A stretch of 64,000 nucleotides of DNA from Candidatus Levyibacteriota bacterium (GTDB lineage Bacteria; Patescibacteriota; Microgenomatia; Levybacterales; GWA1-39-11): the NCBI GenBank assembly GCA_039738415.1, contig JBCLLY010000003.1:17084-81083 (forward strand), in the 5' to 3' direction. A model generated the notes under the pieces. It searched no databases, was not told the origin of the DNA, and worked only from the letters and a program-made list of their open reading frames with translations. Numbering within the stretch: position 1 is the first letter of the stretch; each line of letters opens with the position of its first letter. Positions 12,809 through 16,195 of the stretch are shown one piece after another. A program made the translations under genes and the position numbers.

Positions 12809-13993
12809 ATGGCAAGAATTAAGATTTCCGAGTTTAGAGCAAAGAGTATTCTTTATAAATTTTTAAATAAAGATTATTCAGGAATTTCTGTTGATGTGAA
12901 TAATGATTTGGATACACAAATCTCCAATTTGAATTCGGAAAAAAAATATGTTTTGAAAGTTGATCAGGGAGTAAAGCAGAGAAAGAAAAAAGGCTTGGTA
13001 TTTTTTGATGTAACTAAAATTAGCGCAAGAGAGAAAATAAAAGAATTATCTAACAAAGGATTTTCTCATTTTATAATTGAGGAATTTTTAGAGCACGAAG
13101 GATTTAGTGAAAAATATTTTGCAGTAGAGCGCGTTCGCGAGGGGAAAAAGATTTATTATTCTACTTCCGGTGGCGTAGATATCGAGAAGAATAAAGATAG
13201 CATAAAGAGTTTGACGATTAGAAATTATGAGCAAATTAGAGAAATTGCTGAAGAATTAAACTTGGACATAAAAGTTTTTAACAGCATTTTAAATGCATTT
13301 GATGAGTATTACTTTTCGTTTTTAGAAATTAATCCCTTGGTAGTTCATAGCAATGAGTTTTATTTTCTAGATACTGCAGTTGAAGTCGATAGTGCAGCAG
13401 AGTTTTTTGTTGATAAGGCTTGGAGCAAAGAGGATTTTCGTGAAAGTGGTAAGCGGGAAAAAACTCGGGAGGAAATAGAGATAGAAAAACTTAAAGAGAG
13501 AAGTCCTGCATCGTTTAGCTATGAAATATTAAATCCAAATGGTTCAATATTTTTGCTTTTATCAGGAGGCGGTGCATCGTTGGTTATAGCGGATGAAATT
13601 TATCAGCAAGGAAAAGGAGGGGAGCTCTCAAATTACGGAGAGTATAGCGGAAATCCTAATCAAGAAGAGACATATATCTACACAAAAAATTTAATTACTA
13701 CCCTACTCCACTCCAAATCGAGTCGAAAAGCAATAATAATTTCCGGAGGAGTTGCCAATTTTACAGATATAAGAGCAACATTTAAGGGAATTATAAAAGC
13801 AATGTCTGAAGTTTCTAGCGAGTTACGGGAAAATAACACAAAAGTTTTTGTACGCCGTGGCGGTCCTTATCAGGAAGAGGGACTCAAAATGATGAGAGAA
13901 TTTTTGGAAAAAGAAGACTTGCTCGGTGTTGTTTCCGGACCCGAGATGGTTTTAACAGACATAGTAAAACCGGCGATTGAATGGATTAGTTAA
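12809..13993 (+). CDS. aclB: ATP-citrate lyase small subunit (ATP-grasp, SucC-like)
   Basis: Strong by-eye match to the ACLY N-terminal region: LEINPLVV, LNPNGSIFLLLSGGGASLVIAD, LSNYGEYSGNPNQEETY, GGVANFTDIRATFKGI, VFVRRGGPYQEEGL. Confidence 0.85.
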   Translation: MARIKISEFRAKSILYKFLNKDYSGISVDVNNDLDTQISNLNSEKKYVLKVDQGVKQRKKKGLVFFDVTKISAREKIKELSNKGFSHFIIEEFLEHEGFSEKYFAVERVREGKKIYYSTSGGVDIEKNKDSIKSLTIRNYEQIREIAEELNLDIKVFNSILNAFDEYYFSFLEINPLVVHSNEFYFLDTAVEVDSAAEFFVDKAWSKEDFRESGKREKTREEIEIEKLKERSPASFSYEILNPNGSIFLLLSGGGASLVIADEIYQQGKGGELSNYGEYSGNPNQEETYIYTKNLITTLLHSKSSRKAIIISGGVANFTDIRATFKGIIKAMSEVSSELRENNTKVFVRRGGPYQEEGLKMMREFLEKEDLLGVVSGPEMVLTDIVKPAIEWIS

Positions 13994-14376
13994 TGTCATT
14001 CTGGGGACTCAGAGCGAAGCGTGGAGGACGCCAGAATCAAAAATGAGCAAGCAAATGTATGTTTACATTATGGGAAACAATAGACCCACTCTTTATACGG
14101 GAGTAACGAACAATTTGGTTAGGAGAGTTTACGAACACAAAAATGATCTAATAGAAGGTTTTACCAAACGATATAAATTACATAGATTATTGTATTATGA
14201 GAATTTAGAAGGACAACTTGAATCAATAGTTTGGGAAAAACAAATAAAAGATATGAATAGAGCAACAAAATTAGAAATGATTAAAAGTAAAAATCCGAAC
14301 ATGAGGGATTTGTATGATGAGATAATATGATTCTGGTCAAGCTCGCCTCGCTGAGTCGAAGCGGGCCAGAATGACA
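13994..14376 (+). mobile_element. GIY-YIG cassette with terminal inverted repeats and hairpin arms
   Basis: TIRs TGTCATTCTGG (13994-14004) and CCAGAATGACA (14366-14376). Each arm self-pairs: ATTCTGG 13998-14004 with CCAGAAT 14031-14037, and 14330-14336 with 14366-14372. Inserted between the aclB stop and the aclA start. Confidence 0.75.
14043..14330 (+). CDS. GIY-YIG nuclease family protein (95 aa, UPF0213/YhbQ-like)
   Basis: YVYIM...LYTGVTNNLVRRVYEH...GFTKRY motifs. Start moved to ATG 14043, because the track N-terminus reads through the hairpin arm and overlaps aclB. Confidence 0.88.
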   Translation: MSKQMYVYIMGNNRPTLYTGVTNNLVRRVYEHKNDLIEGFTKRYKLHRLLYYENLEGQLESIVWEKQIKDMNRATKLEMIKSKNPNMRDLYDEII

Positions 14377-14383
14377 ATTTAAT

Positions 14384-16195
14384 ATGAATATACAGGAATT
14401 AAGGGAAATAGAGCCGCGAATTATAATAATAGGAAATCACCCTGCGATAATCCAATCAGTTCTTGATTTTGACTTTATGTCAGGACAAGCAAAGCCTAGC
14501 GTTTTGGCAATTCTTTCATCAGGAAGAAATTATCAGAGGTTTTTTTATGGAAGGCGAGAAATACTTATTCCGGTATTTGAGTTGTTTCAAGCATTGCCGG
14601 AGAATATAAAACAACAAGCTACAATGTTTGTAAATGTTAGCTCCGGAAGAAGAGTTCTAACATCGTCTATCGAAGCAATTGACAGTTTGCCAAATTTAGT
14701 TATAGGAACTATATTTGCGGAAAATGTACCCGAAAAGCACGCGATAGAGATGGGTGAATATGCGAAATTAAAAAACATCAATTTAATAGGACCGGCTAGT
14801 GTTGGGATGGTTATTCCAACAGTGTTTAAGCTAGGTGCAATTGGCGGAGTAAATGTAAATCAGATTAAAAGCTCCGGAATTTTATATAAAGGAGGAGTTG
14901 CTGTTCTCTCTGCATCTGGAGGAATGGTAAATGAGATTATAAATATTGTAGGAAGGAGCAGTAATAGCTTGTCCTTTGCTTTGTCTTTTGGGGGTGATAG
15001 ATTTCCACTACTTGAGCCTATTGATGCCTTAAGAGCTGCTGAAAATGATGAAGATACAAAAGCAGTTATATACTATGGAGAGCTAGGCGGAGAGGATGAG
15101 TATAAAATTGCCACACTACTTTCTAAAGGAGAGTTTAATAAAAAAGTTATTTGTTATGTAGCAGGAACAGTTTCTGATTTATTTGAGTCACCTCCGCAAT
15201 TTGGTCACGCAAAGGCAATGGCGGAAAAACAGGAGGAGGGCGCAAATGCAAAAAGAAAAGTATTAAAAGAAGCTGGTGCGATAGTTCCCGAGAGTTTTTC
15301 GGAGTTTGTAGATGCTATAAATTCATTAGAGGATTTTCCCGTTCGACTCGCAACGCTCGCTCAGGGTGAAGAAAATTTGAAATCTGATACAATAGAGAAT
15401 ATGGATGATAGACGACACGCATTAATTTCTTCAAGTATCTCAAAAGACGAGGATGGAGAAGTAAAAATTCTTGGTGAGGATTTGGTAGTCTTTGCAAAAG
15501 ATAATTCTTTTGCAAAAATTGCCATCTCATTGTTTTTAGGTAAAAAAATAAATTCAAAAGACACAGAGGATTTGGTAGATTTTATATTGAAGGTCTCAGT
15601 TGACCACGGACCGTATGTGTCGGGTGCTCTAAATACAATAGTAGCGGCCCGTGCCGGTAAGGATTTAGTTAGTTCACTTGCATCAGGGTTACTCACGATT
15701 GGTCCCCGCTTTGGTGGAGCTATAAATCAAGCAGCAAGTAATTGGTTTGAGTGCGTTGGTAGTGGTAAGAGTGCACATCAATTTGTAGAAGATTTTGCAT
15801 CAAGAAAAGAATATATCCAAGGAATTGGACATAAAAAATATAGAGTTGATATGCCTGACCCAAGGGTTACCGAGTTAAAAGAGTTTATAAATAAACTTGA
15901 AAATAAAAGGTTTACGAATTTTGCGCTTGAGGTAGAGAAAATTACAACTGAGAAAAAAGGAAATTTGATATTAAATGTAGACGGAATGATCGCTGCAGTT
16001 TTACTCGACTTTCTATCAGAAAAAGAAGGATATTCTGATGAGCAGCTTAAAAAACTAATAGAAGCAGAATTTTTTAATGCGTTGTTTGTATTATCAAGAA
16101 GCGTAGGATTTATTGCACATTTTCTAGATCAAAAGCGCCTCGATGAAGGACTTCTAAGGCTCGAAGAAAGTGATGTAGCTGACGTTTCTATTTAA
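14384..16195 (+). CDS. aclA: ATP-citrate lyase large subunit (SucD-like plus citrate-synthase-like domain)
   Basis: Phospho-His region [12 protein letters not shown]...[14 protein letters not shown]. C-terminal [47 protein letters not shown] and [11 protein letters not shown] match ACLY. Confidence 0.88.
   Translation: [603 protein letters not shown]

Follow-up and report, generated by a model that had tools for sequence, protein, structure and literature searches.

ATP-citrate lyase (ACL) is a classical marker of the reductive tricarboxylic acid (rTCA) cycle. Why would a bacterium of the Candidate Phyla Radiation (CPR) carry this enzyme, and what would it do there? The question was raised by a gene pair, aclB and aclA, in a 64,000-nt stretch of contig JBCLLY010000003.1 from a Candidatus Levyibacteriota bacterium; the whole of this stretch is called the window below. 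The results suggested that the two open reading frames (ORFs) probably encode a functional heteromeric ACL (EC 2.3.3.8), which would run on scavenged citrate and serve envelope acetylation.

A sequence-only reading of the window had proposed a complete two-subunit ACL at this locus. Both ORFs were found at exactly the positions and lengths that it gave (Table 1), and all of the peptide stretches that it quoted, including LILNVDG, were recovered in the translations. In the Pfam analysis, AclB matched PF16114 Citrate_bind (1.6e-55, 188 bits; cut-off 26.8) and PF24948 ACL ATP-grasp (1.2e-31, 110 bits; cut-off 83). AclA contained Ligase_CoA (residues 175–299), Succ_CoA_lig, and Citrate_synt (372–592, citrate synthase C-terminal), all in one ORF.

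Each subunit was searched against all PDB sequences. AclA gave a single continuous alignment with human ACLY (residues 12–599 to 498–1092; 2e-109, 370 bits), followed by Methanothrix (Methanosaeta) concilii ACLY (residues 8–599; 4.5e-104, 352 bits) and Chlorobium limicola (2.4e-66, 228 bits). The ACL scores of AclA were 4–5 times those to the small subunit of citryl-CoA synthetase (CCS; 1.4e-22, 83 bits), the alpha subunit of succinyl-CoA synthetase (SCS, SucCD; about 1e-22, 81 bits), and citryl-CoA lyase (CCL; 57 bits). AclB matched M. concilii ACLY-A over residues 2–391 (6.7e-62), human ACLY (1.4e-58), and C. limicola AclB (1.5e-39); its matches to the CCS large subunit and SucC were 5e-16 and 1.7e-5. 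The NCBIfam models of SucC, SucD, citryl-CoA lyase, and citrate synthase all scored far under their curated cut-offs (SucD, 108 vs. 336 bits), so the pair is none of those enzymes. The resemblance to ACL is far beyond chance. Domains, ACLY alignments, residues, and scores agreed with full-length AclB- and AclA-type subunits, and by its scores the pair grouped with ACLs rather than with SucCD, CCS, or CCL. The neighbour-joining (NJ) tree placed it in a CPR clade within split and fused ACLs. The identification as ACL by the sequence-only reading was borne out. Its label of Chlorobium-type fitted the subunit sizes but was wrong for the sequences, which resembled ACLs of M. concilii and eukaryotes far more (352–370 vs. 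228 bits).

The catalytic residues of AclA were kept. By alignment, E113, H275, H408, H483, and D533 corresponded to human E599, H760, H900, H975, and D1026, and R572 and R592 were two conserved arginines of the lyase module. These residues were invariant among 18 AclA sequences of 36–79% identity and conserved in more than 50 family representatives. The AclB motifs GEYSGNP, ANFTD, and VRRGGP matched human GEYSGAP, ANFTN, and VRRGGP column for column. They covered G309, N346, T348, and R379, the citrate-binding residues reported for human ACLY by Sun et al. in 2010.

The phospho-histidine H275 was present, but the canonical pentapeptide GHAGA was not; K277 in place of glycine gave GHAKA. The loop read GHAKA in 39 CPR-class loci and in every named sequence from Levybacteria, Dojkabacteria, and Saccharimonadia; one member of the CPR clade in the tree (P0123) was without it. 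Of 25 classical loci that could be scored, 24 had GHAGA, which is also the loop of SucD, CCS, and the other ACLs sampled. The start codon of AclA was conserved among relatives. Against L101, a 99% identical strain, dN/dS was 0.14 for aclB and 0.22 for aclA. These values indicate purifying selection, and judged from their sequences both genes look functional.

The host genome was investigated through its homologues and the gene content of the window. Close homologues (57–73% identity) were named Candidatus Levybacteria or Levyibacteriota, a phylum in the Microgenomates group of Patescibacteria, and an identical protein was present in assembly GCA_039731645.1, on a 7.9-kb contig; assembly GCA_039738455.1 carries the locus as well. 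The G+C content was 32–40%, and related contigs of 588 kb (CAYVFE010000001.1) and 835 kb (CAYRKM010000001.1) carried the locus. The remaining genes of the window were of the housekeeping, repair, and salvage kinds and included rpoC, rpsL, rpsG, guaB, guaA, fusA, tuf, the S10-spc-alpha ribosomal operons, and recA/recX. Also present were murB, a GNAT acetyltransferase gene, an HhH-GPD glycosylase gene, an AP endonuclease gene, msrA, tdk, dinB, rny, and miaA, together with a split transketolase and a glycerate kinase. The sequence-only reading had seen no TCA enzymes in the 64 kb, and the Pfam scan likewise found none among the approximately 55 ORFs. Aconitase, isocitrate dehydrogenase (IDH), 2-oxoglutarate:ferredoxin oxidoreductase, fumarate reductase, and pyruvate:ferredoxin oxidoreductase (PFOR) were all missing from these ORFs, and none was a recurrent neighbour in the 47 CPR-type loci described below. 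Pacebacteria, a related Microgenomates phylum, were reported to have no TCA cycle and to be unable to make acetyl-CoA (PMC6064768). A reduced, TCA-less genome is thus supported only indirectly, by this report, the Levybacteria names of the homologues, the synteny with Levybacteria housekeeping genes, and the lack of TCA genes in the window.

Gene neighbourhoods were compared at 93 loci, mostly from an alignment-seeded metagenome scan; a single-protein scan of genome contigs gave 11 loci. The set contained 47 CPR-type loci and 29 classical split ACL loci, the latter defined by an AclA less than 43.5% identical to that of the window. Aconitase and IDH are the neighbours expected in a TCA or rTCA context. 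Aconitase lay beside the pair in 13 of the 29 classical loci, and two IDH families in 7 and 5; neither was ever seen in the 47 CPR-type loci. Instead, murB lay beside aclBA in Levybacteria and in one further locus (L029), and glmS in four loci (L024, L030, L048, and L049), three of which (L024, L030, and L048) also had a membrane O-acyltransferase of the Acyl_transf_3 family. A glmM-type phosphohexomutase with a GNAT-like gene was found in three loci (L023, L035, and L058), a GNAT gene directly upstream of aclBA in four (L039, L046, L047, and L056), an LbH acetyltransferase in one (L041), and sugar nucleotidyltransferases in three (L031, L038, and L045). The glmM-linked gene ('GNATb') resembled GNAT only weakly (Pfam 6e-4, below the cut-off; PDB E 0.02–0.1) and was counted as acetyltransferase-like tentatively.

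The target set for the neighbourhood test comprised murB, glmS, glmM, GNAT, Acyl_transf_3, and LbH acetyltransferase, families that use acetyl-CoA or belong to the UDP-GlcNAc–MurNAc route. Across the 47 CPR-type loci, this set made up 27 of the 137 genes no more than two positions away from aclBA and only 4 of the 291 genes beyond that distance (Fisher p 6e-11). With Levybacteria left out, the remaining CPR loci gave 16 of 83 and 4 of 129 (p 1e-4). The associations recurred in at least six arrangements, across lineages just 45–66% identical in AclA. Because the neighbours were murB, glmS, glmM, and acetyltransferases and not aconitase or IDH, acetyl-CoA supply for envelope acetylation is favoured over the rTCA cycle.

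At one more distant locus (L016, 4040–10839 of a Logan SRR23086398 contig, AclA 38% identical), aclBA lay inside a surface-polysaccharide cluster. The pair came directly after a gene fusion of DegT aminotransferase and GFO and an LbH acetyltransferase gene, in that order, and was followed by an epimerase gene and then by glycosyltransferase and methyltransferase genes. From its gene content, this locus would be the clearest single case of an ACL wired to sugar N-acetylation.

The conservation of the locus was examined across 17 loci of the Levybacteria type, in which AclA was 56% or more identical to that of the window; several of these loci were truncated. The recurrent order was fusA-(HAD)-aclB-aclA-(small ORF)-murB-HhH-GPD, with fusA upstream in 12 of the 17 and murB downstream in 11. 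The gene murB also followed aclA in L013, L014, L099, L100, and L101. The HAD phosphatase gene upstream was frequent, not universal (L002, L005, L019, L099, and L101), and among the first loci tested a GNAT gene after murB was found only in the window and L001. In L014, the gene order was rpoC-rpsL-rpsG...fusA-aclBA-murB...tuf-rpsJ. Since this conserved block lies in Levybacteria housekeeping genes on the 588-kb and 835-kb contigs, contamination was ruled out. The comparison shows a long vertical inheritance of aclBA within Levybacteria.

Family members were gathered from 1.8 billion cluster representatives, and their relationships were estimated by NJ with bootstrapping. Levybacteria formed a clade (98%), sister (94%) to a group containing Candidatus Saccharimonadia and one sequence labelled 'Parcubacteria' (99%). 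Together with Candidatus Dojkabacteria, they formed a monophyletic CPR clade with 87% bootstrap. The next relatives of this clade included DPANN and other archaeal sequences; the nodes joining it to these and to fused eukaryote-type sequences had bootstraps of 11–40%, so that the clade may stem either from an archaeal transfer or from ancient inheritance.

Several public records of metagenome-assembled genomes titled 'uncultured Gammaproteobacteria bacterium' (CAYRKM010000001.1, CAYVFE010000001.1, and others; L002–L008) also held Levybacteria-type fusA-aclBA-murB loci, with AclA 57–78% identical. These titles contradict the Levybacteria-like content of the loci, look like placeholders or errors, and were disregarded for taxonomy.

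A mechanism is proposed from the homology to ACLYs of solved structure. ATP would be bound by the ATP-grasp domain of AclB and citrate by its citrate-binding domain. His275 of AclA would be phosphorylated and hand its phosphate to citrate. Attack of CoA on citryl-phosphate would give citryl-CoA, which the C-terminal citrate-synthase-like module (H408, H483, and D533) would split into acetyl-CoA and oxaloacetate. The enzyme would run in the cleavage direction, on citrate from the host or the surroundings. Acetyl-CoA would be used for N- and O-acetylation of envelope sugars, from glucosamine phosphate to UDP-GlcNAc and then through MurA and MurB to peptidoglycan, and by other acetyltransferases; oxaloacetate would be a useful by-product. 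Three points favour cleavage of scavenged citrate: no other TCA gene stands near aclBA, the genes that do stand there use up acetyl-CoA, and CPR of this group are reported to be without a TCA cycle or other acetyl-CoA sources (PMC6064768). The sequence-only reading had suggested acetyl-CoA from scavenged citrate for cell-wall acetylations. The neighbourhoods strengthened this role, of which we infer the activity, direction, citrate source, and metabolic sink.

Other explanations were weighed against this reading. The pair might not be a lyase but a misread SucCD- or CCS-like ligase, or it might be foreign DNA mis-binned into a CPR genome. Public annotation would agree with a misreading: many homologues are called 'citrate/2-methylcitrate synthase' or 'hypothetical' at NCBI, and some appear at JGI as 'succinyl-CoA synthetase alpha subunit'. 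However, the lyase module is fused into the AclA chain with all catalytic residues, the score to ACLY is 370 bits against 81–83 to CCS and SCS, and the NCBIfam models for SucCD, CCL, and citrate synthase stay far under their cut-offs; mis-binning is countered by the synteny within Levybacteria housekeeping genes on long contigs. By the fused module, the scores, and the synteny, SucCD/CCS misannotation and contamination are effectively refuted, and this explanation is scarcely credible. A CCS/CCL-type organisation was likewise rejected, since a single 603-aa ORF encodes both the ligase alpha-like part and the lyase module, which is thus no separate protein. A role in fixing CO2 by the rTCA cycle, which Chlorobium, Nitrospira, and Campylobacterota use, has in its favour the marker status of ACL and the linkage of classical split loci in the metagenome sample to aconitase and IDH. 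It is highly improbable here: those two enzymes never lie beside CPR-type loci and are not in the window, a Levybacterium has a small genome (related contigs 0.59–0.84 Mb), and CPR are described as being without a TCA cycle (PMC6064768; PMC6851277).

Citrate might also be fermented for energy, with ACL giving acetyl-CoA and oxaloacetate, the latter passing through pyruvate to acetyl-CoA, and acetate and ATP being formed; acetylation would then be a side use. The identity of the enzyme would be the same as in the envelope reading, a 2-oxoacid:ferredoxin oxidoreductase gene adjoins ACL in one archaeal relative (L018), and a comparable scavenging route through oxaloacetate to pyruvate was proposed for a Gracilibacterium (PMC6851277). 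Even so, neither the window nor the recurrent neighbours of CPR aclBA included oxaloacetate decarboxylase, malic enzyme, PFOR, ACD, or Pta-AckA, and the neighbours found (murB, glmS, glmM, and acetyltransferases) are biosynthetic. ACL costs one ATP, and a net gain needs two downstream acetate-forming steps, none of which was seen in the window or the neighbourhoods. Fermentation is consequently considered unlikely, though it is the strongest of these alternatives. The ACL reaction is close to equilibrium, and Moller et al. (1987) reportedly found the enzyme running in reverse in Desulfobacter postgatei. As an ATP-yielding citrate synthase, it would convert acetyl-CoA, oxaloacetate, ADP, and Pi to citrate, ATP, and CoA; the lack of a citrate synthase in the window would fit. 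Reverse operation needs independent sources of acetyl-CoA and oxaloacetate and a citrate sink such as aconitase, however, and none was found in the window or the CPR neighbourhoods. It also leaves the linkage to acetyl-CoA-consuming genes unexplained and is very unlikely.

Several points weigh against the reading of citrate cleavage for envelope acetylation. A citrate transporter was not found in the 64-kb window, and other acetyl-CoA sources (PFOR, ACS, and Pta-AckA) or TCA genes may lie outside it. The neighbourhood test was post hoc, with the families picked from recurrent neighbours; its loci are not phylogenetically independent, and CPR genomes commonly carry genes for the cell envelope. 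The change of glycine to lysine beside the phospho-histidine could alter kinetics or specificity. In this strain, the inserted GIY-YIG gene described below breaks a tight aclB/aclA junction and might affect subunit stoichiometry.

The gene pair was compared with known systems. The M. concilii enzyme (6HXI and 6ZNW) likewise has two subunits with the same domain order and was the best or near-best PDB match for both; it comes from an archaeon, has GHAGA instead of GHAKA, and its subunits are about 25–30 residues longer. Human ACLY (6HXH, 6O0H, and 6POE) was the top match of AclA, and its catalytic and citrate-binding residues are all conserved here. Its role in making acetyl-CoA from imported citrate outside the TCA cycle is the closest functional analogy, although it is one fused chain of 1101 aa with a regulatory linker, while here two genes are split by the GIY-YIG cassette. 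C. limicola AclBA (6HXJ) has the same domains and nearly equal sizes (PDB chains of 398 and 617 residues) but is clearly more distant in sequence and serves the autotrophic rTCA cycle. CCS (6HXQ) and CCL (6HXP) of Hydrogenobacter thermophilus, and SucCD, share homologous building blocks (ATP-grasp beta, CoA-ligase alpha, and CS-like lyase). In the former the lyase is a separate protein, SucCD has no lyase, and their scores are 4–5 times lower (83, 57, and 81 vs. 370 bits).

The concept of a citrate-fed CPR ACL is already published and is not new. Sieber et al. (2019, mBio; PMC6851277) described a two-subunit ACL in a closed Gracilibacterium (BD1-5) genome and proposed that external citrate is turned into acetyl-CoA plus oxaloacetate. 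That organism is also a CPR bacterium with a reduced genome, and the role proposed is the same. Its ACL reportedly differs in having the canonical GHAGA, was called most similar to archaeal proteins, and was described as 'rarely detected in CPR'. GHAKA, in contrast, is common to Levybacteria, Dojkabacteria, and Saccharimonadia, and the Levybacteria loci are syntenic with murB; the NJ tree does not include the Gracilibacterium sequence. A 2025 study found aclAB enriched in metagenome-assembled genomes of Saccharimonadia (PMC12577380), and a 2022 preprint reported mis-annotated citrate-cleavage homologues in CPR and DPANN. The literature search found nothing on ACL of Levybacteria or Microgenomates, the GHAKA clade, or linkage to murB, glmS, or glmM. 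The present work adds the Levybacteria case, the CPR-wide GHAKA clade, and the gene-neighbourhood support.

Table 1. Features of the aclBA locus (nucleotide positions in the window; residue numbers where marked)
Feature	Position	Strand	Evidence or remark
fusA (EF-G), conserved upstream anchor	9783–11924	+	translation
Cof-type HAD phosphatase	11957–12763	+	Pfam Hydrolase_3 1.8e-49
aclB, ACL small subunit, 394 aa	12809–13993	+	Pfam and PDB sequence matches
AclB ATP-grasp domain	residues 5–205		
AclB citrate-binding domain	residues 216–391		
AclB motif GEYSGNP	residues 277–283		
AclB motif ANFTD	residues 316–320		
AclB motif VRRGGP	residues 348–353		
Cassette left end: terminal inverted repeat TGTCATTCTGG and GC-rich hairpin ATTCTGG...CCAGAAT (13998–14037)	13994–14041	+	
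Stand-alone GIY-YIG nuclease-domain ORF, 95 aa	14043–14330	+	PF01541 1.1e-10
Cassette right end: hairpin ATTCTGG...CCAGAAT (14330–14372), then inverted repeat CCAGAATGACA	14328–14376	+	
aclA, ACL large subunit, 603 aa	14384–16195	+	Pfam and PDB sequence matches
AclA CoA-binding and CoA-ligase domains, followed by linker	residues ~12–317		
AclA citryl-CoA-lyase (citrate-synthase-like) module	residues ~347–599		
AclA phospho-histidine loop GHAKA (G274–A278)	15203–15217	+	translation, alignment to human ACLY
LILNVDG with D533 (human D1026), catalytic Asp of lyase module	15965–15985	+	translation
Gene-less 88-nt palindromic element, aclA-murB spacer	16227–16314	+	inverted repeat TGTCATTCTG ... GGAATGACA, two ATTCYGR...YCRGAAT hairpins
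murB (UDP-N-acetylenolpyruvoylglucosamine reductase)	16336–17301	+	Pfam MurB_C, FAD_binding_4
GNAT acetyltransferase, acetyl-CoA user, strain-specific neighbour	17343–17879	+	Pfam Acetyltransf_1 2.5e-16
tuf	30235–31443		aclBA-murB block between fusA and tuf of the str-operon region

The sequence-only reading treated 12809–16195 as two adjacent genes and overlooked the GIY-YIG ORF between the subunits. This insertion falls between the genes and leaves both subunit ORFs intact. Public gene calls for the GIY-YIG ORF start at 14055 (91 aa). The cassette (13994–14376) is arranged as inverted repeat GTCATTCTGG, hairpin, the GIY-YIG ORF, hairpin, and CCAGAATGAC, and its outer ends form an 11-nt terminal inverted repeat. 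The left hairpin folds at -16.4 kcal/mol (z = -2.9) and the right at -20.7 kcal/mol (z = -2.95). A search for the repeat GTCATTCTGR gave 3 matches against 0.23 expected. In a scan of 9600–18000, promoter and terminator counts matched the shuffled expectation (26 vs. 25.1 and 4 vs. 5.1), and an Rfam scan of the window found one tRNA and no match near the aclBA locus.

Among the loci examined, the cassette was carried only by this strain, the identical contig L001, L101 (9635–9995), and L019 (6648–7035; AclA 74% identical). The left-end arrangement of repeat and hairpin was also present in L019 and L101; the right hairpin in both was a short 19-nt form, ATTCTGGTCAAGCCAGAAT. The cassette was missing at the aclB/aclA junction of all other CPR loci examined, including three closer lineages (AclA 82%, 78%, and 78%). 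In the three closest relatives without it, the gap between aclB and aclA was 1–2 nt, and in most other prokaryotic loci examined the genes abut, overlap, or are separated by no more than about 140 nt. The GIY-YIG proteins of L019 and the window lineages were about 60% identical and lay at the same junction. The presence of the cassette at one junction in two lineages, and its lack in three closer relatives, suggests that it either inserted at this site more than once or was lost precisely several times.

The GIY-YIG ORF had 0 differences from that of L101 in 276 nt, though the flanking aclB had a dS of 0.096. The 95-aa protein had 2924 homologues at E ≤ 1e-5; the best 120 of these were 61–100% identical (61–74% apart from one identical match). 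Named homologues came from Curtiss-, Levy-, Davies-, and Blackburnbacteria and Parcubacteria, many on very short contigs. C-terminally extended gene calls mostly carried ...DSGQARMT... or a close variant (DSGQAGMT), which is the translated 3' hairpin GATTCTGGTCAAGCCAGAATGAC, and some N-terminally extended calls carried VIL...PES, the translated 5' hairpin. These translations indicate that the hairpins are conserved as DNA far beyond this genome. Non-intron insertions in the rRNA genes of CPR are known to carry GIY-YIG and 23S_rRNA_IVP genes (PMC11270868). The layout of the cassette is similar to REP/RAYT systems, in which the nuclease is different; no description of its hairpin and inverted-repeat architecture was found in the literature search.

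The palindromic element between aclA and murB has the same terminal inverted repeat as the cassette, folds at -26.5 kcal/mol (z = -2.1), and is also present in L101. It looks like a non-autonomous copy of the cassette ends, similar to a miniature inverted-repeat transposable element or REPIN. Five relatives (L002–L004, L007, and L100) have a 23S_rRNA_IVP (four-helix bundle) gene in this spacer instead. A gene of this family also occurs in the window (27274–27633, reverse strand), outside any rRNA gene and adjoining the gene of a LexA-like S24 peptidase. Nested in the right hairpin of the cassette is a 24-nt GC-rich palindrome, CTCGCCTCGCTGAGTCGAAGCGGG (14343–14366), which is missing from the 99% strain. 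Related palindromes lie upstream of tuf in the window (about 30020–30110) and upstream of guaA in L101 (2406–2456). From this distribution, the movement of miniature palindromes appears to be very recent; the genome is otherwise AT-rich.

Divergence from L101 over 9783–16195 was mosaic, with dS of 0.002 in fusA, 0.096 in aclB, 0 in the GIY-YIG ORF, and 0.026 in aclA. L101 also has a DUF433/DUF5615 (toxin-antitoxin-like) pair between the HAD gene and aclB and no GNAT gene after murB. These differences point to recombination and small-gene turnover around the locus. In the window (9783–31443), about 18 kb separate fusA from tuf, two genes that normally stand side by side in the str operon. The interval contains aclBA, murB, repair genes, tdk, an ABC exporter, GH18, dinB, the LexA-like S24 peptidase, and a class-A-like beta-lactamase; L014 has a shorter version of the same interruption. 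A separate cluster on the reverse strand (55507–60394) encodes an FAD-linked oxidase (GlcD / D-lactate dehydrogenase-like, 551 aa), a transketolase whose N and C halves are separate genes, and a glycerate kinase (DUF4147 and MOFRL).

Most CPR are without the usual acetyl-CoA routes, yet they make peptidoglycan, for which N-acetylated sugars are needed. The conservation of ACL beside murB, glmS, glmM, and acetyltransferases in several CPR lineages gives a concrete hypothesis, in which the acetyl groups would come from host or environmental citrate. Public records give many CPR acl genes a wrong name (citrate synthase, succinyl-CoA synthetase, or hypothetical), and matches to aclA or aclB from Patescibacteria in metagenomes should not be counted as evidence of rTCA carbon fixation. 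A broader proposal, offered tentatively, is that one ancient CPR-specific GHAKA ACL may be the main or only acetyl-CoA source in Levybacteria, Dojkabacteria, and environmental Saccharimonadia, dedicated to cell-wall amino-sugar acetylation. If this is true, these episymbionts would depend on citrate leaked by or taken from the host, a prokaryotic counterpart of the eukaryotic shuttle from citrate to cytosolic acetyl-CoA. Citrate supply would then be a concrete cultivation requirement and a point of host dependence for these uncultured bacteria.

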